From a virus (lineage: Duplodnaviria > Heunggongvirae > Uroviricota > Caudoviricetes), in IMG/VR virus record IMGVR_UViG_2711768050_000003: a DNA stretch of 35,951 nucleotides, one strand, 5' to 3'. Both the position numbers and the translations under genes were made by a program. How positions within the stretch are numbered: the stretch's first letter is position 1; each line of letters begins with the position of its first letter. The notes beneath the pieces are model-generated. The model saw only the letters and a program-made list of their open reading frames with translations. It searched no databases and had not been told where the DNA came from. Below are positions 1,369 to 18,175 of the stretch, in pieces.

Positions 1369-1444
1369 GCCGATATAGCTCAGTTGGTAGAGCAGCGCAT
1401 TCGTAATGCGAAGGTCGTAGGTTCGACTCCTATTATCGGCACCA
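1369..1444 (+). tRNA. thrW: tRNA-Thr (anticodon CGU)
   Basis: 76-nt sequence GCCGATATAGCTCAGTTGG...GGTTCGACTCC...GGCACCA with D-loop, T-loop, anticodon loop CATTCGTAATG and encoded CCA; matches remembered E. coli thrW. Confidence 0.9.
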
Positions 1445-1458: not shown

Positions 1459-2622
1459 TTACACATCATTAGTACCTTCCTTATTTATTGACTGGGACAA
1501 ATTTGGGACCGATGGGTTCAGGATCGAGTCTATTTGCCGTGCGTGTTCGGTAAGGTGATTAGGTGCAAGGTGAGCATATCGACGAACCATTTCGATAGAC
1601 TCCCAGCCTCCCATTTCCTGTAACACTGACAACGGGACTCCGGCTTGAACCAGCCAACTTGCCCAGGTGTGTCTCAGGTCGTGAAATCTGAAATCATCAA
1701 TACCAGCCCGTCTCAGCGCCGCTTTCCAGGCTGTGTTTGCGTCATACCGCATCTTCCTTACTGTTGGCGCTTTCGTTCCGTCTGGTTTGGTACAGCTTTC
1801 CTTGTACACAAATACCCAACGGTGATGATTCCCGATTTGTTTTTTCAAAACGCGACATGCAGTATCATTCAGCGCAACGCCGATTGCGCGGTTTGATTTA
1901 CTCTCTTCCGGGTTTATCCATGCCACCCGGCGCTGCATATCTATTTGTTGCCATTCAAGGTTGATGATGTTCGAGCGTCTTAAGCCTGTTGCCAGTGCAA
2001 ATTCAACAACAGACTTTAATGGCTCCGGACATTCATCAATCAGCCTTTGTGCTTCATGGGGCTCCAGCCAGCGGATCCGTTTATTCTTTGGTTGAGGCAC
2101 TTTAATAATTGGTGCCTTATCCAGCATTTTCCATTCACGCTCTGCGGCTCTTAGTAGGGCCTTTATAAATGAAAGATGCGTAGCCTTCGTTGCAACGGAC
2201 GCTGGTTTTGGCGTGTATTCTGGAACAGGTTTCCCTTTTTTTCTGCATGCTTCTGCCCTGAGTTTCCAGTTTTCCTCATGACGCCGGTTCGTCATTTTCT
2301 GCATTGCTGAATAAATTTTTGATTCAGTAATGTCTCTTAGTTGCATTCCTGCGAAATGTTGAAGCCAGAATCCGATCCGGCTTTTGTCATCGTCCAGTGA
2401 TTTTTTATGTGCTTTCTCTTCAAGCCACCTGACACATGCTTCCTCGAACGTTATATCAGGTATTTCACCAAGTTTACTGACCCGCCATGCTTCAGCCTTT
2501 AGCTTGTCATGGAGTTCTGTCGCCTGCCTTTTGTCCTTTGTTCCAAGAGACTGTTTAAATCTTTTACCGTTCGGCAATGTGAAACTGGCGTACCATATTT
2601 CACCTCTGCGGAAGAGTGACAT
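1459..2622 (-). CDS. int: phage integrase, tyrosine recombinase
   Basis: 387 aa; N-terminus [14 protein letters not shown] typical of lambdoid integrases; C-terminal catalytic motifs ([18 protein letters not shown] with the Tyr); adjacent to the tRNA. Confidence 0.9.
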
Positions 2623-4716: not shown

Positions 4717-5541
4717 TCAGGCGGTGAAAGTGCCAATAAAGGTTTCTACTTTGCTGTCTTTGAATTTCTCAACAAGCAGATCACGAAATTCGTTAGCCAT
4801 ATCTTCCTGCACTGCTTCCAGCTGAATAATGCGCAGAACCAGTACAGGACGATCGCCAGTGATAATGCTGAGGCGTAATTTAAACGGACGTTCTTTCAGA
4901 CCTTCAAACGGAACGCATTTAAATTCAAATGCCACTGGCATAATGTCTTTGGTCTTCGCTTCGACAGATTCCATCAGGGAGCGTTTGCCGCTGAAGTCAT
5001 TATCTTCAAAATCAGCGGTCTGGTTTGCTTCAATCGTGATTTTACGGATTGCCGCAGCCGCTTTTGTTGCCTGAATGGCGTCACCATTAGCATCAAAGCC
5101 CACAAGGTAGTCGGCCCAGTCTTCAATCCATTCTGCCAGTGATTTCTGGGAGTTACGCTCGCCGTTAACAGACAACAGGGCAGAGAACGGTGCTGTCTTT
5201 TTCAGTTTGAGAGTGGCGGTGTTATCTGCGTGACCTGGTTCATCAATAGTACCTAGGTTAAGCACACTGACGGCACGCATATTATCAGCATCGATAAAGC
5301 AGCGGGTGCCTTCATCTGCAAGATCTTTAGAATAACGGGTAAAGTCATCGATGCTGGCAGTGGAAAGCGCACCACGGAAACGGAAGCGATTTAAATTAAA
5401 TTTTTCCAGATCATGAATGCGGAAATTCTCAGGCAATGCCACAGCATCGGCACCAATCTTACTGATAATTTCATTAACACCCTGAGCAGAAATAAGGGCA
5501 TGGATTTGATTAATTGCGGTTGCGTCTAAGTTCTGAGACAT
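4717..5541 (-). CDS. YfdQ-like prophage protein (DUF2303-type), function unknown
   Basis: 274 aa, GAGGAC RBS; sits next to the YfdR-like and YfdP-like genes as in the remembered CPS-53 yfdP-yfdQ-yfdR module. Confidence 0.55.
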
Positions 5542-5606: not shown

Positions 5607-5969
5607 TTAACGACCTGCTGCGCGGAGTTTTCCGTCAGGTTCACCGGCAAGAGTCAGCAACTGTCCCTGGTCTTCCTGCAGAATAGTCAGGCGACCACCG
5701 CGATTGACATACATCGGCGTTTCGGTGGTGTCTTCTTCGGAAATTTTCCCGCGGTTAGTCGGGCGAACATATGAGAGTTTGTGTTTGATTTTCACTCGGT
5801 TCTCATCAAACGGTTCGATTTCTAGGTTGAGCGAGACCTTACCTTTGGTTTTCGTGTTCATCACACCGGAAGCGACTTCACTGAGTACTGCGCCGATTTT
5901 GGTTTCAAATACGCCGCCGTCCAGCTCCCTGATAAATGCCTGCACATCAGTACTGCGTTCGCTAGCCAT
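5607..5969 (-). CDS. YfdP-like prophage protein, function unknown
   Basis: Start at the internal ATG (MASERSTDVQ...) with GAGGAG RBS; the longer 226-aa six-frame ORF would run through GC-rich structured DNA with junk-like translation. Confidence 0.5.
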   Translation of the reverse strand: MASERSTDVQAFIRELDGGVFETKIGAVLSEVASGVMNTKTKGKVSLNLEIEPFDENRVKIKHKLSYVRPTNRGKISEEDTTETPMYVNRGGRLTILQEDQGQLLTLAGEPDGKLRAAGR

Positions 5970-6017: not shown

Positions 6018-6106
6018 ACAAAACAGAGAAGAACACCTGCGGTGACTGCCGCCCGGATGGATTGGGTTATGAGCCCGTCGTCCGGTGATGCTCTTCTCTG
6101 TTTTGT
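6018..6106. repeat. Long inverted repeat: 14-15-bp perfect stem (ACAAAACAGAGAAG / CTTCTCTGTTTTGT) closing a ~60-nt GC-rich loop
   Basis: Direct reading of both arms; located 48 nt upstream of the YfdP-like start in the leftward transcript. Confidence 0.6.
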
Positions 6107-6115
6107 AAAAAGGAC

Positions 6116-6150
6116 GGTACCAGCCGGAAGCAAGGGTACAAGCTGGTACC
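6116..6150. repeat. Perfect 9-bp hairpin GGTACCAGC-N17-GCTGGTACC containing GGTACAAG
   Basis: Direct reading; three GGTAC(A/C) motifs, and GGTACAAG is identical to one arm of the cI/cro operator palindrome at 7975..7995. Confidence 0.55.
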
Positions 6151-6375
6151 GCCAAGACTACACACAGCATAAAGTTGTGGTGCCGGGTGCCTCCCGGTGC
6201 CTGGCGAAGGTTGCACACCAGGCGGGTGGGTATCCACAGAAGGTCGACTGTCAGCCTCAACCTTAACCCGCGTGCGCTGAGCCGCATTCACCACAACGCT
6301 AAGGATTCTCTCTGGTTGAAAATACTTAGCTGTTATGTGCCTGCTTTTAGCCACATCAGGCGAGGTGGACCTAGT

Positions 6376-7284: not shown

Positions 7285-7959
7285 TTAGGCTTTGATTTTG
7301 TATCTTCTTGGTTTTCCTGAGAAAATCACTGTACCAATTATAGAGCAATTACCGTTGATCTTAATGTAAGGCTCAGGCCAGTTTGGGTTTAACGCTTTGA
7401 GATAACGCTGTGTCCCATCTTCTATCAACCTTTTGAAGGTGGTTTCGCCTGTATCGTGCATCAATGCAATAACGTCGTCACCGTGGCAGGCAGGTACTTC
7501 AGGATCGACAAAAATCATGTCTCCCGGGCGGTACTCATCAATCATTGAATCACCTATCACCCGCAAGATATAAGTCATTTCCCCACAGGGTACAGGGCAG
7601 GGATACGTTTCTGCTGTGCTCAAATCAACCTCAGAATATCCAACTTCTTTCCATGCTCCGGCCTGTACCCATGATATGACAGGGACTAATGTGATTTGTT
7701 TATTAGTGATTGAAACATCAGGTTTTTTTGTGATGTTCGTTGTCTGGTGTTCTTGATCGAGCCATCCGACAGGCAGGTCGAAACATTTTTCGATGTGTCG
7801 TGCCATGCTGTCACCGATATTTTTAGTAGCACCATCTCCCATAAACCTGCTGGTCTGGGTTGGCTCGCGATCAATCATAGTGGCAAAGGAAGAATTCCCG
7901 CCAACACCATCTCTCAGTTTTCTGGCGTTAGACCGCCGGATGTCATGGATTGTTTTCAT
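7285..7959 (-). CDS. cI: CI-like repressor (HTH plus S24 LexA-like autopeptidase domain)
   Basis: 224 aa; C-terminal domain with GDSM (Ser) and FKRL (Lys) dyad; divergent from the cro-like gene across an operator-rich intergenic region. Confidence 0.85.
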   Translation of the reverse strand: MKTIHDIRRSNARKLRDGVGGNSSFATMIDREPTQTSRFMGDGATKNIGDSMARHIEKCFDLPVGWLDQEHQTTNITKKPDVSITNKQITLVPVISWVQAGAWKEVGYSEVDLSTAETYPCPVPCGEMTYILRVIGDSMIDEYRPGDMIFVDPEVPACHGDDVIALMHDTGETTFKRLIEDGTQRYLKALNPNWPEPYIKINGNCSIIGTVIFSGKPRRYKIKA

Positions 7960-7974
7960 AACGAAATTAAAACC

Positions 7975-8044
7975 CTTGTACCGTTAAGGTACAAGTATCT
8001 TGAAGGTTCATTTCAATCATGTAATATGTACACCGGAGGTACAT
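7975..8044. promoter_or_regulatory. OR/PR/PRM-like immunity switch region
   Basis: Perfect palindrome CTTGTACC-GTTAA-GGTACAAG (7975..7995); second GTAC-centred site TGTACACCGGAGGTACA (8027..8043); rightward promoter -35 TTGAAG (8000..8005), 16-nt spacer, -10 TAATAT (8022..8027). Confidence 0.5.
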
Positions 8045-8049
8045 ATTGT

Positions 8050-8250
8050 ATGAAAGCGTATTGGGACTCTTTAACCAAAGAACAGCAGGGCGAGTTGGCC
8101 GGAAAAGTTGGCTCAACACCTGGCTACTTACGGCTGGTTTTCAATGGCTATAAAAAAGCCAGTTTTGTGCTGGCTAAAAAACTTGAGCAATGCACGTCAG
8201 GTGCAATTACGAAATCTGACTTAAGACCGGATATCTATCCGAAAGATTAG
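8050..8250 (+). CDS. cro: Cro-like repressor (YdaS/Cro family HTH)
   Basis: 66 aa from the ATG at 8050 with GGAGG RBS; divergent from cI; resembles YdaS-type Cro proteins. Confidence 0.65.
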   Translation: MKAYWDSLTKEQQGELAGKVGSTPGYLRLVFNGYKKASFVLAKKLEQCTSGAITKSDLRPDIYPKD

Positions 8251-8281: not shown

Positions 8282-8851
8282 ATGAGGCTAACCGTGGGTA
8301 AGCATCACTGGAAAATAGAAAAACAGCCTGAGTGGTACGTGAAAGCTGTCAGAAAAACTATCGCGGCGTTGCCGGGTGGTTACGCTGAAGCGGCTGACTG
8401 GCTCGATGTAACAGAAAACGCTTTATTCAACCGCCTTCGTGCAGATGGCGATCAGATTTTCCCGCTGGGATGGGCAATGGTTTTACAGCGTGCTGGTGGC
8501 ACTCACTTCATTGCTGATGCTGTGGCGCAGTCTGCAAATGGCGTCTTTGTGTCTCTTCCTGACGTCGAGGATGTGGACAACGCCGATATCAACCAACGCC
8601 TGCTGGAAGTCATTGAACAGATCGGCAGTTATTCAAAACAGATTCGTTCAGCAATCGAAGACGGTGTAGTGGAACCGTATGAGAAGACAGCAATTAACGA
8701 CGAGCTGTATCTCTCAATTTCGAAGCTGCAGGAGCATGCAGCACTTGTCTACAAAATTTTTTGCATTTCAGAAAGTAATGACGCCCGCGAGTGTGCAGCT
8801 CCGGGCGTCGTGGCGTCGATTGCTTCTGGTTGTGGAGAAACTAACGCATGA
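8282..8851 (+). CDS. CII-like / YdaT-type early regulatory protein
   Basis: 189 aa in the position between cro and the replication gene occupied by cII-like regulators in lambdoid prophages; family assignment from memory only. Confidence 0.4.
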
Positions 8852-9186
8852 ACAGTTTAACAACACACTACCGTCGCTCGCAACTGATTGCGCTTCCTGT
8901 ACCGGGTGGAAAAGCGAAGGTGGAATATTGCTATGCAGTGAATGTACCAGGTGACAGGGAAATTGTAACCCACAGCTTTGCAGAGTGGGCTGTGGGTGAT
9001 TTCAACCGGCAGAAGGAGACAGTCCTTTGCGACAAGTTAACCGCTGGTTCAAAGATCACTACGGAGTGCCCGTCAGAGTCATTCGTTGGGAGCCGGAAAC
9101 ACAACGGGTTATCTACCTCCGCGAAGGTTATGAGCATGAATGCTTCAGTCCGCTCGAACAGTTTCGTCGTAAATTCAGGGAAATAG
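8848..9186 (+). CDS. hypothetical protein (possibly only the first ~60 codons are real)
   Basis: 112-aa ORF with ATGA overlap to the upstream gene; the C-terminal half is Ser-rich and low-complexity and overlaps a better-looking frame. Confidence 0.3.
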
Positions 9187-9206
9187 AGGTCGGTCATGAG
9201 CACTAA
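9027..9206 (+). CDS. small hypothetical protein with TTG start, missed by the ORF track
   Basis: AGGAG (9014..9018), 8-nt spacer, TTG at 9027; 59 codons ([40 protein letters not shown]...) ending 11 nt into the replication gene; no in-frame ATG. Confidence 0.35.
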
Positions 9207-10137
9207 ATTAACCGGCTATGTATGGGATGGTTGCGCTGCATCAGGCATGAAGTTATCCAGCGTGGCAATTATGGCCCGCCTGGCTGATTTCAGTAATGAC
9301 GAAGGTGTGTGCTGGCCATCAATTGAAACCATTGCCCGCCAGATTGGCGCGGGGATGAGTACCGTCAGAACGGCTATCGCACGGCTGGAAGCTGAAGGCT
9401 GGTTAACGCGTAAGGCGCGTCGCCAGGGTAACCGCAATGCGTCGAATGTTTATCAGCTTAACGTTGCGAAGCTTCAGGCAGCGGCATTTTCTCAACTGTC
9501 AGATTCTGACCCGTCAAAATCTGACGCATCAAAATCTGACCCGTCAAAATTTGATGCGTCGAAATCTGGCAAAAAAGCGGGTTTTCACCCGTCAGAATCT
9601 GGCGGGGATCCGTCAGTAAAATCAAAACATGATCCGTCAGATAAAAATACTTCTCGTCCGGACGCTTCGCAACCGGACACGCAGACGGCTGAACAGGAGT
9701 TTTTAACTCGCCATCCTGATGCGGTTGTATTCAGCCCTAAAAAGCGCCAGTGGGGAACGCAGGATGATTTGACCTGCGCACAGTGGCTCTGGAAAAAAAT
9801 CATCGCCCTGTACGAGCAGGCCGCCGAATGTGACGGCGAGGTGGTTCGTCCCAAAGAACCGAACTGGACAGCCTGGGCAAACGAAATTCGCCTGATGTGT
9901 GTGCAGGATGGTCGTACTCACAAACAAATCTGCGAGATGTACAGCCGCGTCAGCCGCGATCCGTTCTGGTGCCGTAACGTGCTCAGCCCGTCGAAGCTGC
10001 GGGAAAAATGGGATGAGCTTTCCCTGCGCTTATCGCCGTCCGTCAGCACGCACACAGAAAAACGCGAAGACCCGTACTTCAAATCCAGTTACGACAACGT
10101 GGACTACAGCCAGATCCCGGCAGGATTCAGGGGGTGA
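9196..10137 (+). CDS. replication initiation protein (N-terminal HTH, internal iteron region, DnaT-like C-terminus)
   Basis: 313 aa; N-terminal HTH (IETIARQIGAGMSTVRTAIARLEAEGWL); gene body contains tandem 15-bp iterons as in lambda O. Confidence 0.65.
   Translation: MSTKLTGYVWDGCAASGMKLSSVAIMARLADFSNDEGVCWPSIETIARQIGAGMSTVRTAIARLEAEGWLTRKARRQGNRNASNVYQLNVAKLQAAAFSQLSDSDPSKSDASKSDPSKFDASKSGKKAGFHPSESGGDPSVKSKHDPSDKNTSRPDASQPDTQTAEQEFLTRHPDAVVFSPKKRQWGTQDDLTCAQWLWKKIIALYEQAAECDGEVVRPKEPNWTAWANEIRLMCVQDGRTHKQICEMYSRVSRDPFWCRNVLSPSKLREKWDELSLRLSPSVSTHTEKREDPYFKSSYDNVDYSQIPAGFRG
9505..9650 (+). repeat. Origin-like iteron array inside the replication gene
   Basis: Tandem 15-bp units TCTGACCCGTCAAAA, TCTGACGCATCAAAA, TCTGACCCGTCAAAA, TTTGATGCGTCGAAA (9505..9564), then degenerate CCGTCAG copies and an A-rich tract. 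Confidence 0.6.
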
Positions 10138-11359: not shown

Positions 11360-12157
11360 ATGAATAATCTGATGGTCATTGATGGTATTGAAGTTCGTCG
11401 TGATGCTTATGGTCGTTACAGCCTGAACGATCTGCACAGGGCTGCCGGTTCTCTGGATAAGCATAAGCCTGCATTCTGGCTCCGCAATGAGCAAACTGAA
11501 CGTTTAATAAGCGAGTTGCAGATTTGCAACTCGGTCAATATAGAGCCAGTTAACGTTATTCGTGGCGGAAATAACCAGGGGACGTATGTCTGCAAAGAAC
11601 TGGTGTATGCCTATGCAATGTGGATCAGCCCGTCATTCCATCTGAAGGTGATCCGTACTTTCGACATGGTAACCAGCGCACCGGAAAAATTATCCGGACA
11701 GGCTGCTGACAAGATGCAGGCTGGTGTGATTCTGCTGGACTTTATGCGCCGGGAATTAAACCTGTCTAACTCTTCAGTGCTTGGTGCCTGTCAGAAACTC
11801 CAGGAGGCTGTTGGCTTACCGAATCTGGCACCGCGCTATGCCATTGATGCTCCTGCTGACGCGCCTGATGGCTCAAGCCGCCCCACGCTGTCACTGAGTG
11901 CACTGCTGAAGCAGTATGGTATCCGCCTGACAGCTAATCAGGCATATCACCAGATGGCGAAGCTGGGGATCGTCGAGCTGCGCGAACGATACAGCCGTAC
12001 CGCGATTAACAACATCAAAAAATTCTGGTCGCTGACGGCGAAAGGCTGCATGTTCGGCAAGAACATCACCAGTCCGGCAAATCCGCGTGAGACGCAGCCG
12101 CATTTCTTCGAATCCCGATTCCCTGAGCTGTTAAAGCTGCTCGATACCGTTCATTGA
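11360..12157 (+). CDS. KilA-N domain protein
   Basis: N-terminal KilA-N signature (YSLNDLHRAAG...KPAFWLRNEQT...YAYAMWISPSFHLKVI); GAGGAG RBS. Confidence 0.7.
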   Translation: MNNLMVIDGIEVRRDAYGRYSLNDLHRAAGSLDKHKPAFWLRNEQTERLISELQICNSVNIEPVNVIRGGNNQGTYVCKELVYAYAMWISPSFHLKVIRTFDMVTSAPEKLSGQAADKMQAGVILLDFMRRELNLSNSSVLGACQKLQEAVGLPNLAPRYAIDAPADAPDGSSRPTLSLSALLKQYGIRLTANQAYHQMAKLGIVELRERYSRTAINNIKKFWSLTAKGCMFGKNITSPANPRETQPHFFESRFPELLKLLDTVH

Positions 12158-12158
12158 G

Positions 12159-13154
12159 GTGACCGTGAGAGCACTACTGACCCCTGAAATAGCCCCGCGT
12201 ATGGGGATCGTATTGTTCAGACCCGGTTCAGAGCTGATGCCCCTGTTTATGCAGGGGCGTGTCCTGCTGGAGCCTGAGCCGGAACGTTATTCATCTTTCG
12301 CCAGTGGTGCCGTTCCCGCGGCATCACAACCGCTGGCGGATGATCCTGCCGTTCGGGCCGTGTTCTGCAATGAGGCAGTGATCCGTCGTGCTGGTGGCGT
12401 GGAATGTCTTGAAAGCTGGTTACTTCGTGAAAAGGGCTGTCAGTGGCCTCATTCCGACTGGCACAGCGAGAACATGACCACAATGCGACACGCGCCGGGC
12501 GCGATCCGTCTGTGCTGGCACTGCGATAACCAGCTGCGCGATCAGTTCACGGAACGGCTGGAATCAATGGCAACGGATAACTGTGCCCGCTGGGTGTTGT
12601 CTGTTGTGCGTCGGGATCTCGGTTTTGATGACAGTCACGTTGTGACAATGCCGGAACTGTGCTGGTGGCTGATTCGTAATGACCTGGCGGATGCCTTACC
12701 GGAAAGTGCAGCCCGTAAGGCACTGAGATTACCGAAGCCTGTTGTGCCGTCTGTCACCCGGGAAAGTGACCTTGTGCCTTCGATTCCTGCCACCAGCATC
12801 ATCCATGATAAGGCGAAAAAGGTGCTGGCGCTGAAAGTGGATCCGGAGTCGCCGGAGTCTTTTATGTTACGCCCAAAACGTCGCCGCTGGGTTAATGAAA
12901 AGTACACGCGCTGGGTTAAGACACAGCCGTGTGCATGTTGTGGAAAGCCTGCTGATGATCCCCACCACCTGATAGGTCACGGTCAGGGTGGAATGGGTAC
13001 AAAAGCGCATGACCTCTTTGTGTTGCCTTTGTGCAGAAAGCATCACGACGAGCTGCATGCGGATACCGTGGCATTTGAAGAGAAGTATGGCTCCCAGCTG
13101 GAGCTGATATTTCGTTTTATCGATCGTGCGCTGGCAATTGGCGTGCTGGCGTAA
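12159..13154 (+). CDS. DUF968-type protein with C-terminal Cys/His HNH-like motif
   Basis: 331 aa; C-terminal CACCGKP...HHLIGHG...CRKHHDELH cluster; GTG start (alternative GTG at 12165). Confidence 0.5.
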   Translation: MTVRALLTPEIAPRMGIVLFRPGSELMPLFMQGRVLLEPEPERYSSFASGAVPAASQPLADDPAVRAVFCNEAVIRRAGGVECLESWLLREKGCQWPHSDWHSENMTTMRHAPGAIRLCWHCDNQLRDQFTERLESMATDNCARWVLSVVRRDLGFDDSHVVTMPELCWWLIRNDLADALPESAARKALRLPKPVVPSVTRESDLVPSIPATSIIHDKAKKVLALKVDPESPESFMLRPKRRRWVNEKYTRWVKTQPCACCGKPADDPHHLIGHGQGGMGTKAHDLFVLPLCRKHHDELHADTVAFEEKYGSQLELIFRFIDRALAIGVLA

Positions 13155-13167
13155 GTGGAGAACGAGC

Positions 13168-13920
13168 ATGAACCTTGAAGCCTTACCAAAATATTACTCC
13201 CCAAAATCTCCAAAATTGAGCGATGACGCACCGGCGACAGGCTCAGGTGGTTTAACGATTACGGATGTGATGGCTGCGCAGGGGATGGTGCAGTCGAAAG
13301 CACCGCTTGGGTTTGCCTTATTCCTGGCAAAAGTTGGTGTTCAGGATCCTCAGTTTGCGATTGAAGGTCTGTTCAATTACGCGATGGCACTGGATAACCC
13401 GACATTGAACAAATTGAGTGAAGAAACCCGGTTACAGATCATCCCTTACCTTGTGAATTTTGCCTTTGCTGATTATTCCAGGTCTGCGGCAAGTAAGGCT
13501 CGCTGTGAGCATTGTGCTGGTACTGGATTTCATAATGTATTGCGCGAAGTGGTGAAACACTCCAGAAGCGGGGAATCTGTTATCAAGGAAGAGTGGGTGA
13601 AGGAACTATGTCAGCATTGCCATGGTAAGGGAGAAGTCAGCACCGCGTGCAGAGGGTGTAAGGGTAAAGGTATTGTCCTGGATGAAAAAAGGACCCGGCT
13701 TCATGGCACGCCTGTTTATAAGATTTGTGGGCGTTGCAATGGAAACCGGTTTAGCCGTTTACCAACCACACTGGCGCGGCTTCATGTCCAGAAGCTGGTA
13801 CCAGACCTGACGGATTATCAGTGGTACAAAGGATATGCAGATGTCATTGATAAACTGGTTACAAAGTGCTGGCAGGAGGAAGCTTACGCTGAAGCACAAT
13901 TGAGAAGGGTGACGAGATAA
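13168..13920 (+). CDS. late-gene antiterminator Q-like protein with DnaJ-type zinc-finger repeats
   Basis: Four CxxCxGxG repeats; GGAGA RBS before the ATG at 13168; positioned immediately upstream of the lysis region as Q is in lambdoid phages. Confidence 0.5.
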   Translation: MNLEALPKYYSPKSPKLSDDAPATGSGGLTITDVMAAQGMVQSKAPLGFALFLAKVGVQDPQFAIEGLFNYAMALDNPTLNKLSEETRLQIIPYLVNFAFADYSRSAASKARCEHCAGTGFHNVLREVVKHSRSGESVIKEEWVKELCQHCHGKGEVSTACRGCKGKGIVLDEKRTRLHGTPVYKICGRCNGNRFSRLPTTLARLHVQKLVPDLTDYQWYKGYADVIDKLVTKCWQEEAYAEAQLRRVTR

Positions 13921-14027
13921 GCGATTTTCGCCGAAGATAACGACATAATACTTGTGTTTCTCAAAAAATATGGATAAGATTTTCTCAACGATGGGGCTTG
14001 TGTATCTATCGTTGAACAATTTTTACG

Positions 14028-14052
14028 ACCTCGCTATTGCGAGGTTTTTTTA
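14028..14052 (+). terminator. rho-independent terminator downstream of the Q-like gene
   Basis: ACCTCGC-TATT-GCGAGGT followed by TTTTTTT. Confidence 0.6.
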
Positions 14053-14065
14053 TGGTTTTTTTCTA

Positions 14066-14097
14066 TTCAATCTACATCAAAATCAATGTGTTATAAT
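14066..14097 (+). promoter_or_regulatory. Extended -10 promoter (TGTTATAAT) driving the AT-rich cassette
   Basis: TGnTATAAT at 14089..14097, about 38 nt upstream of the 14135 ATG; no good -35. Confidence 0.45.
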
Positions 14098-14134
14098 GTT
14101 TTCTGTAAAACAACATTAAAGACAGGAGAACATT

Positions 14135-14404
14135 ATGAAACTGACCTCTATCCATCTTGAAATACTACGTCGAGTGAATGAATTGCAGCCAAAGGATTCT
14201 AGAATTCAGGCTACATCATTACCTCATCTCTCAGCAAAAGAGGTTAATTTTGCTATTTCAGATCTTGCTGATATAGGTTTTATCGATGTTATACGAAGCA
14301 AATCTGCCGAAGGTGGATTGATTGCTAATGAGATAACGTCAAAAGGTTTTGCTTTTTTGAGTGAGATTGGCGCTGAAAAAAATTCATCGATGAGCACTCA
14401 TTGA
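14135..14404 (+). CDS. small hypothetical protein, cassette gene 1
   Basis: 89 aa, strong RBS GACAGGAGAACATT-ATG; AT-rich; any winged-helix assignment is speculative. Confidence 0.65.
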   Translation: MKLTSIHLEILRRVNELQPKDSRIQATSLPHLSAKEVNFAISDLADIGFIDVIRSKSAEGGLIANEITSKGFAFLSEIGAEKNSSMSTH

Positions 14405-14418
14405 TTTCTGCTTCAATC

Positions 14419-14436
14419 GGCTGCCAATTGGCAGCC
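14419..14436 (+). repeat. Hairpin GGCTGCC-AATT-GGCAGCC, left copy of a repeated hairpin flanking cassette gene 2
   Basis: Perfect 7-bp stem, no U-tract; near-identical to the terminator hairpin at 15442..15459. Confidence 0.55.
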
Positions 14437-14601
14437 TAAACTGTAAAGTGAATTTAAAATCGCCTACAATTGATGCTTAAATTTTGTTCTGTATCATCTG
14501 CAGGTTTAGGGATATCACAGTAGCTTTCTGACAAGAAGAGTTCTTTTCTTCTACCAATGAAGTGGTTATGTTAACCTGCGCCAAATCGAGACTGGTGCGG
14601 A

Positions 14602-15408
14602 GTGGAATCGAAAGTGTCATATTTTTACAGAAGCAAGAATATTTCAGGTGTTTCTATAAATGAAGATAGCTTGATTAGCTTAAGCACGGCAATTGTCGAA
14701 CGCTGCGTTAAAATGAATGAGCAAGCTCAAAAGGAAAGTAGGGAAGTTTGTGCTCAATGTGTTTTTTTTATTTTGTTCGATGGTAAGGGGTATAAAGTTG
14801 ATTCTATCGGTGAGCTTGTGAAATACTTTAGACAGGCCACTAGGATTGATCAAATAATTTTTACTATTGAAACTTATCAAAGTCGACAGTCTAACAGGAT
14901 GAATGGATCTTGGATGGAGCTACGAATTGATGAGAGGAATTCAAATAGCAGCACAATGATTGTAGCATCGGAAGATAATGAGTGGGTTGACTCGTTATGG
15001 ATTACGATTCAGGATTTACTTAACAAGTGCAAAAATAAATTTAGATTTTTTAGAACAGCTTGGACTATGTTAAGTATCCAGATTTCAGGTGTGACAGTTG
15101 GCTTTTTGCTTAGCTTATGGACAGCCTCAAAACTGGCGCCAAAACTATCAATCGATGGTGCATTTGCTTTATCATTTATTTGTATCTTTATTTTGTTTTC
15201 GAACTTATGGAGCTTTGCTATTCCATTAATAATTAAGCTTATCGACTTTTTGTTTCCTAGTGTTAAGTTTGTTATTAATGGTAAAAATTACTTTCACTGG
15301 AGTGTTCAGGCTATAATTGGAGCGATTGCCAGTGCGGTTATATTGTATTTTATTAGCTCCATGTTGCTTTTTGCATTAGAAATGTTAAATAGCATCATTA
15401 AGAAATAG
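14602..15408 (+). CDS. hypothetical membrane protein (soluble N-terminal domain, 3-4 C-terminal TM helices), cassette gene 2
   Basis: 268-aa ORF, AT-rich; hydrophobic segments in the C-terminal 120 aa. Start uncertain: GTG 14602, GTG 14614 or ATG 14713. Confidence 0.55.
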   Translation: MESKVSYFYRSKNISGVSINEDSLISLSTAIVERCVKMNEQAQKESREVCAQCVFFILFDGKGYKVDSIGELVKYFRQATRIDQIIFTIETYQSRQSNRMNGSWMELRIDERNSNSSTMIVASEDNEWVDSLWITIQDLLNKCKNKFRFFRTAWTMLSIQISGVTVGFLLSLWTASKLAPKLSIDGAFALSFICIFILFSNLWSFAIPLIIKLIDFLFPSVKFVINGKNYFHWSVQAIIGAIASAVILYFISSMLLFALEMLNSIIKK

Positions 15409-15441
15409 TTAATGAATTAGTTATAATTACATCAATTCTAT

Positions 15442-15466
15442 GGCTGCCAAATGGTGGCCTTTTTTA
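15442..15466 (+). terminator. rho-independent terminator after cassette gene 2
   Basis: GGCTGCC-AAAT-GGTGGCC stem (two G-U pairs) followed by TTTTTT. Confidence 0.55.
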
Positions 15467-15516
15467 TTCCTCTCATTTCTATTTCTGAGAGGACTCACTG
15501 CAATAAGAGGTGGCTA

Positions 15517-15903
15517 ATGTCCGATCCGATTTCCGGCACAGGGTTAGCTGGTGGAGCCCTAACGGGCGCTAGTATTTATGGACTGCTGACCGGAACTGAT
15601 TACGGCGTTGTTTTTGGCGCATTTGCAGGGGCTGTATTCTATATAGCAACAGCAGCAGATCTGAGTGCATCGCGCCGACTGGCATATTTTATCGTGTCAT
15701 ATATTGCTGGGATCCTTTGCTCTGGATTGGTTGGCTCCAAGCTGGCAAACTTGACCGGATACAGTGATAAACCTCTGGATGCTATTGGTGCCGTAATCGT
15801 CTCTGCTTTAGCCGTTAAAATCCTGACGTTCCTGAATAATCAGGATATCGGCTCGCTGGTGGCGCTCATAACGCGCCGGGGAGGTTCAGGTGGAGCTAAA
15901 TGA
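15517..15903 (+). CDS. putative holin
   Basis: 128 aa from the ATG at 15517 with AGAGGTGG RBS; Gly/Ala-rich TM segments; first gene of the lysis cassette. Confidence 0.55.
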   Translation: MSDPISGTGLAGGALTGASIYGLLTGTDYGVVFGAFAGAVFYIATAADLSASRRLAYFIVSYIAGILCSGLVGSKLANLTGYSDKPLDAIGAVIVSALAVKILTFLNNQDIGSLVALITRRGGSGGAK

Positions 15904-16171
15904 CCCGACAGCAACTATTAATGCGCTGTTATGTGCTTGTGTTGTTATTACTCTGATGTTTTATCGTCGTGGTGATTCGCGGCATCGTCCGTGGGTTTCA
16001 CGTTTAGCCTGGCTGATTACTGTTACATACAGTGCTGTTCCGTTGGCCTATCTCTGTGGGATTTATCCCCATTCCTCATGGCCCATTATCGTGGCGAACA
16101 CTATTTTTCTTTCCGTGCTGGTGGCTGTCAGAGGCAACGTTGCACGTCTGGTTGATCATCTGAGGCACTAA
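15890..16171 (+). CDS. small lysis-cassette membrane protein (second holin or antiholin-like)
   Basis: 93 aa, two hydrophobic helices; GTG start overlapping the holin stop, ends at the endolysin start. Confidence 0.4.
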   Translation: MELNDPTATINALLCACVVITLMFYRRGDSRHRPWVSRLAWLITVTYSAVPLAYLCGIYPHSSWPIIVANTIFLSVLVAVRGNVARLVDHLRH

Positions 16172-17364: not shown

Positions 17365-17634
17365 TGACGCTGCCCCGAATACTCAAAGTTGCTGGTAGCC
17401 AGTTTCAGGTAAAAAGCTGAGAGCGCACTGGTGAGGGTTAACGGGAAGAAGCGCACCGGTGCTCTAGGCTGATAGCCAGTCAGCTTCCGGTTAGTTATGA
17501 GGGATTCACGAGATACCCCTGACACATGGTCTCAAGGGCATGATCGCGGCCATTGCGAAAGTGTGGATGCAGAAAATAATGAAAAGCAGCTCAATATGAG
17601 CCGCTTTGATTTTCCGCTCTTGTTGAAATGAAAG

Positions 17635-17916
17635 TTAGCTACCTGACCCCATTCTGTAAGTCATAGTCACAAAACCAGGCTTTTCAGGGTCAGCGCTTAT
17701 TGTTGTCTGGATATTATGAGATGAAATCTCAGAGGATCCGTTTTTTTGGGTAATAGTGATATGGCTACCATTTTCATACTCAAAGTACTTAACGGTATTT
17801 CCATTAACTACAGACTCTTCAGCTTTAACTAAGCCTTTATCATCAATGGTGATCTTGGAAATTTCTTCCTCAACCTTCATTTCACCACTTTTTGCATCAA
17901 ATTGAATTTTTGGCAT
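17635..17916 (-). CDS. hypothetical protein, AT-rich moron between lysis and packaging genes
   Basis: 93 aa from the ATG at 17916 with GGGAGA RBS; extended -10-like TGGTATAAG about 30 nt upstream on the minus strand; opposite orientation to the flanking late genes. Confidence 0.5.
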   Translation of the reverse strand: MPKIQFDAKSGEMKVEEEISKITIDDKGLVKAEESVVNGNTVKYFEYENGSHITITQKNGSSEISSHNIQTTISADPEKPGFVTMTYRMGSGS

Positions 17917-18175
17917 GTTTTCTTCTCCCAAGAATTGAGTATTTTCTTATACCACAAAATACTCATGCTAAACACAGTAACCTACTGGAAGCCGTAGTTT
18001 GGTGATGGGTATATATATAATGATGGGTTAAAAACCTGGTCTGATGAGGGAAAACAAATTGTGCGTAATCGCCTAAAACCAAGCTGACACCGAATCGGAT
18101 TCAAGTTCAGTACTGGCCATCACACTCAATTCAAGCTACTAGAATTCGCTAGCGTTTATTTATTTTGGAACACCC

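Follow-up and report, generated by a model that had tools for sequence, protein, structure and literature searches.

The interval between the late antiterminator gene Q and the holin gene of an E. coli lambdoid prophage is best explained as a classic cargo ("moron") slot holding two AT-rich add-on modules in tandem, both closed by a copy of a terminator hairpin widespread in phages; for this explanation as a whole, which amounts to ordinary phage architecture, a probability of roughly 65% is given. The window, that is, the whole stretch of DNA analysed, comprises 35,951 nucleotides of this prophage, and the gene order in the interval is Q antiterminator, tR'-like terminator, orf89 (wHTH-like), hairpin 1, orf264 (membrane protein), hairpin 2 and holin. 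The features are:

13168..13920, + strand: Q-type late antiterminator gene (Pfam PF03589 Antiterm, E 6e-53; phrog_127; RefSeq "antitermination protein").
14027..14054, + strand: tR'-like intrinsic terminator, GACCTCGC-TATT-GCGAGGTT plus T7 (terminator scan).
14089..14097, + strand: TGtTATAAT, an extended -10 promoter-like element preceding orf89, read from the sequence and absent from the two-hexamer scan list.
14135..14404, + strand: orf89, cargo gene 1, small winged-helix-like protein (weak DUF2513 and HTH_45 matches; phrog_32916).
14419..14436, no strand assigned: hairpin 1, GGCTGCCAATTGGCAGCC, perfectly palindromic and lacking a U-tract on both strands.
14614..15408, + strand: orf264, cargo gene 2 (phrog_30208), with a soluble N-terminal alpha/beta domain and C-terminal transmembrane helices.
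15442..15468, + strand: hairpin 2 and its U-tract, GGCTGCC-AAAT-GGTGGCC TTTTTTATT, the right end of the cargo region.
15469..15492, + strand: holin-leader hairpin CCTCTCA...TGAGAGG, directly 3' of the hairpin 2 terminator, read from the sequence and part of the conserved holin leader.
15517..15903, + strand: holin (Phage_holin_8; Pfam PF16931, E 8.5e-35; RefSeq annotation).

The Q gene forms the left conserved flank of the slot, and the holin, the first gene of the lysis cassette, forms the right. Entirely different cargo fills the Q/tR'-holin slot in related E. coli prophages (L002, L003, L335, L336 and L345 of UTI89). Homology to related prophages breaks on the left at tR' (14014/14050) and on the right either at hairpin 2 (15435-15447) or just 3' of its T-run (~15481, up to 15486). 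The tR'-like terminator is the left boundary of the variable region, the homology of other E. coli Q modules stopping at 14014/14015 or 14050, and comparison with other prophages finds the same holin leader behind many different upstream modules. The G+C fraction is 0.32-0.38 within 14001-15500 vs 0.47-0.56 in the flanks, and both cargo genes lie inside this AT-rich island.

The morons of lambdoid phages, a concept of Juhala and Hendrix (reviewed in PMC3594210), are represented here in the pR'-proximal slot that extends from Q to the lysis genes. In relatives the genes that border the cargo are adjacent or enclose other DNA, so that the cargo counts as extra; its base composition also differs from that of the surrounding phage genes. 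As in other lambdoid morons, the extra genes are absent from related phages and low in GC, are located downstream of Q, pR' and tR' and upstream of the holin, and include a gene (gene 2) with its own predicted intrinsic terminator, and there are candidate promoters of their own. The element TGtTATAAT at 14089-14097 is inferred to be a candidate moron promoter for orf89, and a scan places a second promoter-like site (9/12 sigma-70-like) at 14470-14497, before orf264, although the scan total is no higher than in shuffles. An own terminator is found for orf264, with which hairpin 2 and its T-run are co-inherited, and not for orf89; unlike a typical moron, gene 1, whose terminal hairpin lacks a U-tract, is therefore not a complete promoter-gene-terminator unit.

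A sequence-only reading had reported two look-alike 7-bp hairpins on either side of gene 2, of which only the downstream one has a U-tract, and both observations hold. Positions 14418-14436 read CGGCTGCCAATTGGCAGCC, with C rather than the T written earlier as the first base, and 15441-15459 read TGGCTGCCAAATGGTGGCC, followed by TTTTTTATT. The identity of the two 19-mers is 15/19 and not about 16 of 19 as first given; the cores, GGCTGCCAATTGGCAGCC at 14419-14436 and GGCTGCCAAATGGTGGCC at 15442-15459, agree at 15/18 positions. In hairpin 1, seven Watson-Crick pairs enclose an AATT loop, the 18 bp forming a perfect palindrome; hairpin 2 has seven pairs (5 G-C and two G-U wobbles) around an AAAT loop. 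RNA folding of both elements, which had been proposed as a check, gave -15.7 kcal/mol for hairpin 1 (z -3.9; 0/200 shuffles equally good) and -11.4 kcal/mol for hairpin 2 (z -2.4; 5/200 shuffles equally good). A search of both strands of the 35,951 bases with up to 3 mismatches returned exactly two sites, hairpins 1 and 2, compared with 0.03 such matches expected by chance from shuffles, and 0/100 shuffles contained two.

The hairpins bracket the ORF at 14602/14614-15408, hairpin 1 lying 14 nt after the orf89 stop codon and hairpin 2 lying 33 nt after that of orf264, and both match the 18-nt family pattern GGCTGCCAWWTGGYRGCC exactly. As an intrinsic terminator requires, the G+C-rich stem-loop of hairpin 2 is followed by a U-tract (TTTTTTATT), whereas behind the stem of hairpin 1 come TAAACTGT (+ strand) and GATTGAAG (- strand); the terminator scan calls only hairpin 2 terminator-like. 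Likewise, the T-run that characterizes the hairpin family (T5, then NN, then TT, 3' of the stem) is present behind hairpin 2 and absent behind hairpin 1.

Comparison of orf264 with its homologues (P0006-P0013) separates the two hairpins. A terminator is found at the same position behind homologues at 79% (L337), 77% (L147), 62% (L343/344) and 51% (L340-342). The 3' arm retains GTGGCC plus T5-6 in all of these, with the full GGTGGCC kept at 79-62%, and the 5' arm varies, GGCTGCC giving way to GGCTACC and then to GGCCCACC. A G-to-A change in L147 turns a G-U pair of the hairpin 2 counterpart into an A-U pair; pairs in the five orf264 terminators were read by eye, as the MAFFT alignment was too gappy for pair counting. 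Hairpin 2 stays with the orf264 homologues across two holin families, including a downstream Phage_holin_2_1. At seven other loci the homologues have the downstream hairpin only; the upstream hairpin is present in none, and the upstream neighbor there is an N6_N4 methyltransferase. Hairpin 2 with its U-tract is thus the predicted intrinsic terminator of orf264 itself, and the bracketing of orf264 is not conserved, because the homologue loci lack the upstream hairpin. No match to orf264 was found in Pfam, PADLOC or NCBIfam, and its AF2 model (mean pLDDT 71, N-terminal domain ~85) has no significant neighbor in the PDB (best Foldseek E 0.03).

Hairpin 1 is absent from all orf264-homologue loci outside the present cassette, and the homology of L147 to the window begins at 14565, 128 nt past hairpin 1; these comparisons place hairpin 1 outside the orf264 module. 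Most likely it is a U-tract-less copy of the family hairpin that closes the orf89 module. It could instead be convergent rather than copied, because the fully Watson-Crick form GGCTGCC...GGCAGCC is generic across unrelated bacteria. Its invariance across 7 distinct cassette variants is uninformative, since the cassette is at least 99% identical wherever found and, among 14 variable sites in 1,461 nt, 0 fall in the hairpins vs 0.4 expected, too few for covariation. The wHTH assignment of orf89 is below Pfam thresholds. Protein searches and scans of IMG/VR and metagenomes found no orf89 relatives outside the cassette, all copies having at least 96% identity and lying in the same cassette; an apparently different context in L333 proved to be merely a frameshift. 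An ancestral form in which the orf89 end runs through the hairpin into a T-run (TCAATCGGCTGCCAWWTGGYRGCCTTT) had no match in IMG/VR and metagenome contigs.

GGCTGCC-AWWT-GGYRGCC is a terminator-hairpin type very widespread in temperate phages of Enterobacteriaceae. The motif occurs in at least 120 IMG/VR viral contigs, and at least six of the nine nucleotides behind it are T in 106/123 instances among the matches listed. Roughly 38 distinct upstream and 39 distinct downstream contexts are represented, rough counts given that IMG/VR is redundant and that the instances are those among the matches listed. Column conservation over these contexts is confined to A(-1), the hairpin and the T-run. Stem-permuted controls returned 14 and 46 matches, of which 2 and 16 were terminator-like (T-run), vs at least 106 for the motif. 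Pre-holin positions are among the sites, as are tail, capsid, AAA ATPase and colicin-M-like genes and the 3' ends of sRNAs. The sequence-only reading had held that a common terminator at unrelated loci would speak against a special role for the pair, and this is what the search of other genomes returned. Tandem family hairpins around short segments are also present in L071, L060 and L020. STnc100 copies ending in the family hairpin were found at L071 8974 and 9256 and at L056 5839; the family hairpin as simply the STnc100 terminator was rejected, 4/120 instances among the matches listed lying behind an STnc100 core. PasA and PasD were likewise rejected as its source, the printed partial sequences of PasA (including the predicted seed) and PasD1/D2 being without GGCUGCC. 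The predicted PasA seed is said to overlap its terminator stem, and PasA lies on the strand opposite to its flanking genes.

When one genome per species was scanned, matches to the motif were scattered across taxa and mostly in perfect-palindrome form, the fully Watson-Crick GGCTGCC...GGCAGCC making up 77/120 matches, and only the contrast between wobble and Watson-Crick forms informs on phage ancestry. The ratio of the wobble form GGCGGCC to the Watson-Crick form is 38:4 in phage contexts (among the matches listed) and 10:56 in species genomes (Fisher p = 2e-15). Enrichment over the permuted controls and the wobble signature argue for common descent of the family hairpin.

In the lambda late operon, Q antitermination at pR' reads through tR' and downstream terminators. 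The window resembles it in having a Q gene, a terminator ~100 nt downstream and then a lysis cassette, and by analogy terminators between pR' and the lysis genes would have to be read through in lytic growth. Unlike in lambda, Q here belongs to the PF03589 (82/21-like) type, and qut, pR' and read-through would be expected here by analogy. From lambda biology, hairpin 2 would halt cargo-initiated transcripts short of the holin in the lysogen, and Q-modified RNA polymerase from pR' would pass it, as it would tR', in lytic growth. For hairpin 1 the most likely reading is a terminator copy that was disabled or never complete, and it would mark the joint at which recombination brought the orf89 module, together with Q and tR', next to an orf264-terminator-holin block. 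Its activity may be at most that of an RNA 3'-end stabilizer or weak pause site, and co-transcription of orf89 and orf264 is therefore possible.

Since two modules in tandem each have a 3' hairpin, the bracketing of gene 2 would be a by-product and not a pair of dedicated cassette ends. The earlier suggestion of a modular cassette boundary survives in that each hairpin, on the comparisons above, forms the 3' border of a cargo module inherited on its own; it falls in that seven loci keep the downstream hairpin only. A duplicated terminator is an apt description insofar as the hairpins belong to one family, and not insofar as hairpin 1 has no U-tract. Nothing points to the recombination or processing site also proposed. 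Neither a form without gene 2 nor a second location of the 1-kb unit turned up in the searched E. coli genomes, IMG/VR or metagenomes, and IMG/VR and metagenome contigs likewise yielded no orf89-hairpin-T-run junction.

Among 5,426 E. coli genomes searched at blastn sensitivity, 41 contain the cassette, with one full-length copy each and no partial or independent forms. No excision, orf264-less form or second site of the 1-kb unit was found in these genomes, IMG/VR or metagenomes. Strain XB2, considered as a different left flank, is a deletion-decayed prophage with a frameshifted methyltransferase pseudogene where the window has Q. No integrase or transposase is present in the annotated neighborhood, the neighbors being Q and the holin. 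A dedicated recombination site at the hairpins is unsupported.

It is possible, though not probable, that the hairpin with its T-run, ~25-30 bp in all, provides a short stretch of homology at which flanking modules are swapped by phage or host recombinases, in the manner of the promoter-early stem-loops (PeSLs) of T4-type phages; the two copies in the window would be what such exchanges left behind. As an evolutionary mechanism, this would fit the two-moron explanation. Mosaic junctions adjoin the family hairpin in many contig pairs, and the hairpin is the sole shared island between otherwise unrelated flanks, with breakpoints on either side. The same upstream sequence is joined to different downstream sequence in L003/L066 vs L048/L092, L010 vs L056 and L019 vs L041, and the same holin_8 leader is found behind at least 8 different upstream modules. 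The motif's enrichment over stem-permuted controls fits such a role, and the excess of the wobble form in phages (p = 2e-15) argues for common descent over convergence. However, in most E. coli holin_8 prophages homology breaks past the T-run and the terminator is absent or different (L335, L336, UTI89), so the hairpin is not required for cargo exchange. The recombinant between hairpins 1 and 2, which would have lost orf264, occurs in none of the 5,426 genomes, IMG/VR or metagenomes, and selection for terminators at module ends combined with illegitimate recombination would look similar.

A stronger version, which we regard as doubtful, makes GGCTGCC-AWWT-GGCGGCC-U(n), with its conserved U-G wobble, a single-origin portable element and module-swap linker, the lambdoid counterpart of the PeSLs, which in T4-type phages lie on either side of ORFans and bring about the shuffling of modules (PMC2839356, PMC4122927). 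Both are conserved stem-loop terminators repeated at the borders of variable genes where mosaic junctions coincide, and by analogy the family hairpin may likewise insulate downstream late genes from cargo transcription. Unlike PeSLs, which pair a strong sigma-70 promoter with the stem-loop, the present family conserves the hairpin and T-run only, with no promoter component; it is present in one or two copies per genome, vs ~50; deletions between copies were not found in the searched genomes; and the phages are temperate and lambdoid, not T4-like. If this version is true, the element has dispersed among temperate phages of Escherichia, Klebsiella, Salmonella, Citrobacter and relatives, the swapped modules would include cargo genes, sRNAs, lysis cassettes of several holin families and even structural-operon joints, and hairpins 1 and 2 would be the footprints of two exchanges.

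A rather unlikely role for hairpin 1 is that of an intercistronic RNA element, a 3'-exonuclease barrier or processing site prolonging the life of orf89 mRNA over that of orf264 within one transcript. Its stability (-15.7 kcal/mol, z -3.9) 14 nt past the orf89 stop codon is consistent with this, as are its persistence in the fold of a 240-nt context and the missing U-tract, so that polymerase should pass. It is also invariant in all cassette copies, although with 0.4 variable sites expected this is uninformative, and orf264 could be transcribed separately from the promoter-like site at 14470-14497.

It is quite unlikely that hairpin 2 serves to terminate a small regulatory RNA, whether one derived from a 3'UTR or one starting from the promoter-like site at 15398-15427. 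The neighborhood directly upstream of holin operons is shared with prophage sRNAs: AgvB, AsxR, PasA/C/D and STnc100 (RF02076) cluster in the moron slot by holin-lysozyme operons (PMC4104026; bioRxiv 10.64898/2026.05.13.724894). Several STnc100 copies use the same GGCTGCC...GGCGGCC terminator, among them the L071 and L056 copies noted above, and hairpin 2 is closely preceded by a TTAAGA-18-TATAAT site. A transcript from that site would be only ~32 nt, however, and the site overlaps the AT-rich coding end of orf264. Unlike the terminators of these sRNAs, hairpin 2 stands behind a protein-coding gene, and a covariance-model search of 13500-16000 against Rfam, including STnc100, AgvB and AsxR, gave no match even at E<=1; over the whole window at gathering score, tRNA was the sole match. 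The STnc100 core precedes few family hairpins (4/120, as above).

It is very unlikely that hairpin 1 is a DNA operator at which a dimeric regulator, such as the wHTH-like orf89 product, controls orf264. The position of a perfect palindrome behind a putative wHTH gene and ahead of the following gene suggests this, but its sequence is explained by a terminator-hairpin family found at dozens of loci without orf89, no second half-site or repeat was found elsewhere in the window, the palindrome center lies ~77 bp upstream of the nearest predicted start, and the wHTH assignment is itself sub-threshold.

Integron attC sites are imperfect palindromes of 57-141 bp with GTTRRRY core sites and an associated integrase. 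That the hairpins are a mobile-cassette site pair of this kind, or MITE-like ends, moving gene 2 is an idea suggested by the bracketing itself and is already contradicted, the hairpins being 18 bp long without GTTRRRY and without an integrase or transposase nearby, gene 2 homologues lacking the left hairpin, target-site duplications being absent, and the 1-kb unit never occurring alone or elsewhere (41 E. coli genomes, one full-length copy each, no partial matches).

The Q-holin interval can accordingly be annotated as two tandem morons with a terminator, and no special recombination machinery needs to be invoked. By analogy with lambda, the terminator immediately ahead of the holin would be expected to leave the lysis genes unexpressed in the lysogen. 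Enterobacterial temperate phages have the single 18-nt hairpin at dozens of joints unrelated to one another, and it is a usable marker of module boundaries and a candidate short-homology recombination linker in lambdoid phage mosaicism.

The window is an E. coli lambdoid prophage, and its interval 13900-15600 is found at 99% identity or higher in 41 of 5,426 complete E. coli genomes. Gene order was taken from RefSeq annotation and Pfam together with a terminator scan; a DUF968 gene precedes the Q antiterminator gene, and the interval then reads:

13168-13920, Q antiterminator (PF03589)
14027-14054, terminator resembling tR', the terminator after Q
14135-14404, orf89 (cargo gene 1), weak wHTH/DUF2513 similarity
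14419-14436, hairpin 1, between orf89 and orf264
14614-15408, orf264, membrane protein with no family assignment
15442-15459, hairpin 2, between orf264 and the holin gene
15517-15903, holin (Phage_holin_8)

A second holin-family gene, an endolysin gene and the terminase genes follow. The G+C content falls to 32-38% in 14001-15500 from roughly 47-56% on either side. Upstream of orf89 is an extended -10 element (TGtTATAAT, 14089-14097), and a weaker promoter-like site (14470-14497) lies 5' of orf264. The orf89-orf264 interval occupies the classic slot for morons, add-on genes with their own transcription signals, downstream of Q/pR' (PMC3594210; PMC4104026). The same cassette persists in a heavily decayed prophage of E. 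coli XB2 (L209, NZ_CP162303.1 1713715-1721415), where it adjoins yfdP, yfdQ and yfdR, the tail genes are truncated, and a frameshifted methyltransferase pseudogene stands at the window's Q position. At the left end of the window's prophage, a tRNA gene (1369-1441, plus strand, Rfam 71.8 bits) adjoins a 387-aa ORF (1459-2622, minus strand), probably the integration site with a putative integrase gene. Further right, a strong 11-pair hairpin followed by a T-rich run (TCATTATTTT) lies on the minus strand at 17583-17607, overlapped by a 5-pair terminator-like site on the plus strand (17589-17601). Around both sites GC drops to 39% (17501-18000); they lie between the lysis genes and an ORF on the minus strand (17635-17931), and the low-GC patch with them is probably another moron.

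Read directly from the window, 14418-14436 is CGGCTGCCAATTGGCAGCC and 15441-15459 is TGGCTGCCAAATGGTGGCC, followed by TTTTTTATT. The two look-alike hairpins described in the sequence-only reading are confirmed, with their likeness corrected from about 16 to 15 of 19 positions (15 of 18 across the hairpin cores) because the first base of copy 1 is C and had been misread as T. A window search allowing up to three mismatches returned these two sites only (chance expectation 0.03). Hairpin 1 is a perfect 18-bp palindrome, and two of the seven pairs of hairpin 2 are G-U; both fold as RNA hairpins, as proposed (-15.7 kcal/mol, z -3.9, and -11.4 kcal/mol, z -2.4, respectively). The U-tract had been assigned to the downstream copy only, and the terminator scan likewise calls only hairpin 2 terminator-like; hairpin 1 has the same type of stem and loop without a U-tract on either strand.

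By its anatomy hairpin 2 is a predicted intrinsic terminator; it is co-inherited with orf264 and closes the cargo region on the right. Every close copy, whether in E. coli genomes (41), IMG/VR contigs (12) or metagenome contigs (5), has the complete set of orf89, hairpin 1, orf264 and hairpin 2. A protein search brought up more distant orf264 homologues; in each of the retrieved loci a terminator stands at the same place 3' of the gene.

Terminators 3' of distant orf264 homologues (L-numbers denote other phage and prophage loci compared with the window)
L337, 79% identity to orf264, GGCTGCC-AAAT-GGTGGCC-T6
L147, 77% identity, GGCTACC-AAGT-GGTGGCC-T6
L343/344, 62% identity, GGCTACC-gcgact-GGTGGCC-T5
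L340-342, 51% identity, GGCCCACC-tata-GTGGCC-T5

The 3' arm and T-run are constant and the 5' arm varies with pairing kept (A-U replaces a G-U pair in L147), which argues that hairpin 2 is orf264's own terminator. A different lysis cassette lies downstream in L343/344 and L340-342, starting with a Phage_holin_2_1 holin in L340. None of the seven distant loci has a hairpin upstream of the orf264 homologue, where the neighbor is an N6_N4 DNA methyltransferase gene (PF01555) in six and a short unassigned ORF in L340, and L147 homology to the window starts only at 14565. Hairpin 1 therefore belongs to the orf89 side. The proposal of a duplicated terminator at module boundaries thus survives as one terminator type at module edges, whereas the bracketing of orf264 is not a conserved feature; overall, the earlier interpretation is partly supported. 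The methyltransferase and membrane-protein pair recurs in the Q-holin slot (L147, L337, L338, L341-L344; orf264 homologues of 51-79% identity), and orf89 takes the methyltransferase's position in the window's lineage.

E. coli prophages with related Q or holin modules carry quite different cargo at the Q-holin position (L002, L003, L335, L336 and UTI89 L345). In related prophages, left homology to the window stops at 14014/14015 or at 14050, within the tR' T-run. Right homology starts at the 5' edge of hairpin 2 (15435-15447), inside or directly after it (15453-15466), or, in the majority, past the T-run (15481-15486). Prophages of this last group lack a terminator there (L335) or have one of unrelated sequence (GGCCGC-CTTAAT-GCGGCC in L336, GGCCG-TAACGAA-CGGCC in UTI89). 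Hairpin 2 therefore marks a real module boundary, one independent of this particular hairpin. A second conserved hairpin, CCTCTCA...TGAGAGG, with a loop of variable length, is present in all holin_8 leaders, after the terminator T-run and ahead of the ribosome-binding site of the holin gene (window 15469-15492; also L002, L003, L010, L335, L336 and further loci); in the window copy a T repairs a C-A mismatch present in most others. This leader hairpin may control holin translation.

The hairpin type is not tied to one cassette: pattern GGCTGCCAWWTGGYRGCC, matched by both window hairpins, occurs at many unrelated loci, with at least 120 IMG/VR contigs carrying it. Far fewer matches came from two stem-permuted control patterns (14 and 46 contigs, with 2 and 16 T-run instances, in complete scans), so the motif is enriched at least 6- to 50-fold. 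Among the matches listed, 106 of 123 instances have at least six T within the next 9 nt, about 38 upstream and 39 downstream contexts are distinct, and only an A at -1, the hairpin and T5-NN-TT are conserved across contexts. These include at least three kinds of lysis-cassette leader (holin_8, lambda-S-like holin_3_1 and lysozyme-first), sites upstream of AAA ATPase, colicin-M-like, major capsid and tail L genes, and the joint of the tail-terminator and major tail subunit genes, with T-run, in Klebsiella phages 2b LV-2017 and vB_Kpn_RAH1 and in L004-type loci (24 IMG/VR contigs among the matches listed). The tail-gene copy is internal to the late structural operon; polymerase would need to read through a full terminator at that position. 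In phage contexts among the matches listed, the U-G wobble form GGCGGCC and the Watson-Crick form GGCAGCC stand at 38:4, vs 10:56 for terminator-like matches in one-genome-per-species bacterial DNA (Fisher p = 2e-15), a contrast that points to shared descent within phages, not repeated convergence. The same contrast shows that hairpin 1, as a perfect palindrome, is of the generic form.

When loci are compared in pairs, unrelated flanks share just the hairpin and T-run as an island, and the break may lie on either side: upstream is shared and downstream differs in L003/L066 vs L048/L092, L010 vs L056 and L019 vs L041, and the holin_8 leader follows at least eight different upstream modules. This pattern fits module exchange at a short conserved hairpin linker, as described for promoter-early stem-loops (PeSLs) of T4-type phages (PMC2839356, PMC4122927), and would arise equally well if terminators were selected for at the ends of modules. 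The hairpin type shares the PeSL definition only in part, because it has no conserved promoter half and few copies per genome. A linker is unlikely, and no evidence emerged for the recombination or processing site first suggested. E. coli genomes, IMG/VR and metagenome contigs yielded neither a product of recombination between hairpins 1 and 2 nor an orf89-hairpin-T-run-holin form, and the 1-kb hairpin-to-hairpin unit was not found free or at another position. A wHTH operator at hairpin 1 is also unlikely, as is an sRNA terminator at hairpin 2. The hairpin type is found at the 3' ends of some copies of the prophage sRNA STnc100, but no Rfam sRNA family matches at either window hairpin. An attC-like site is contradicted by the data, as the arrangement lacks the defining features of integron cassettes.

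Family hairpins also flank short segments in tandem at other loci, as two terminators of STnc100 copies 282 bp apart in L071, three within 1.9 kb in L060, and two at 491 bp spacing in L020. L071 and L056 each have three STnc100 copies (8821-9004, 9082-9286 and 12126-12328; 5129-5309, 5672-5869 and 7928-8124), at least three of the six ending in a GGCTGCC...GGCGGCC terminator; isrI (RF01392) is also in L056 and L020. In the window's early-left region, 6104-6327 (minus strand) is a sub-threshold STnc100 (RF02076) match (43.4 bits vs gathering score 47, local E 5e-8) that includes the exact core CCGGGAGGCACCCGG, and 6112-6166 is a weak DicF-like match.

With hairpin 2 as orf264's terminator, transcripts from the putative cargo promoters would end there in the lysogen, and the holin would stay silent. 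Once the prophage is induced, polymerase modified by Q would run on from pR' through tR' and both hairpins to the lysis and structural genes. Hairpin 1 would be a terminator copy that was disabled or never completed, at most stabilizing the 3' end of processed orf89 mRNA, and would lie at the joint where a Q-tR'-orf89 segment may have recombined onto an orf264-terminator-holin block; other lineages would have a methyltransferase-containing segment there. The arrangement is already known in kind: a lambdoid prophage whose Q-holin slot is occupied by morons that bring terminators of their own. In the literature, covered incompletely, no description was found of one 18-nt terminator hairpin reused at mosaic joints, and the breadth of this reuse in Enterobacteriaceae temperate phages may be the new part.
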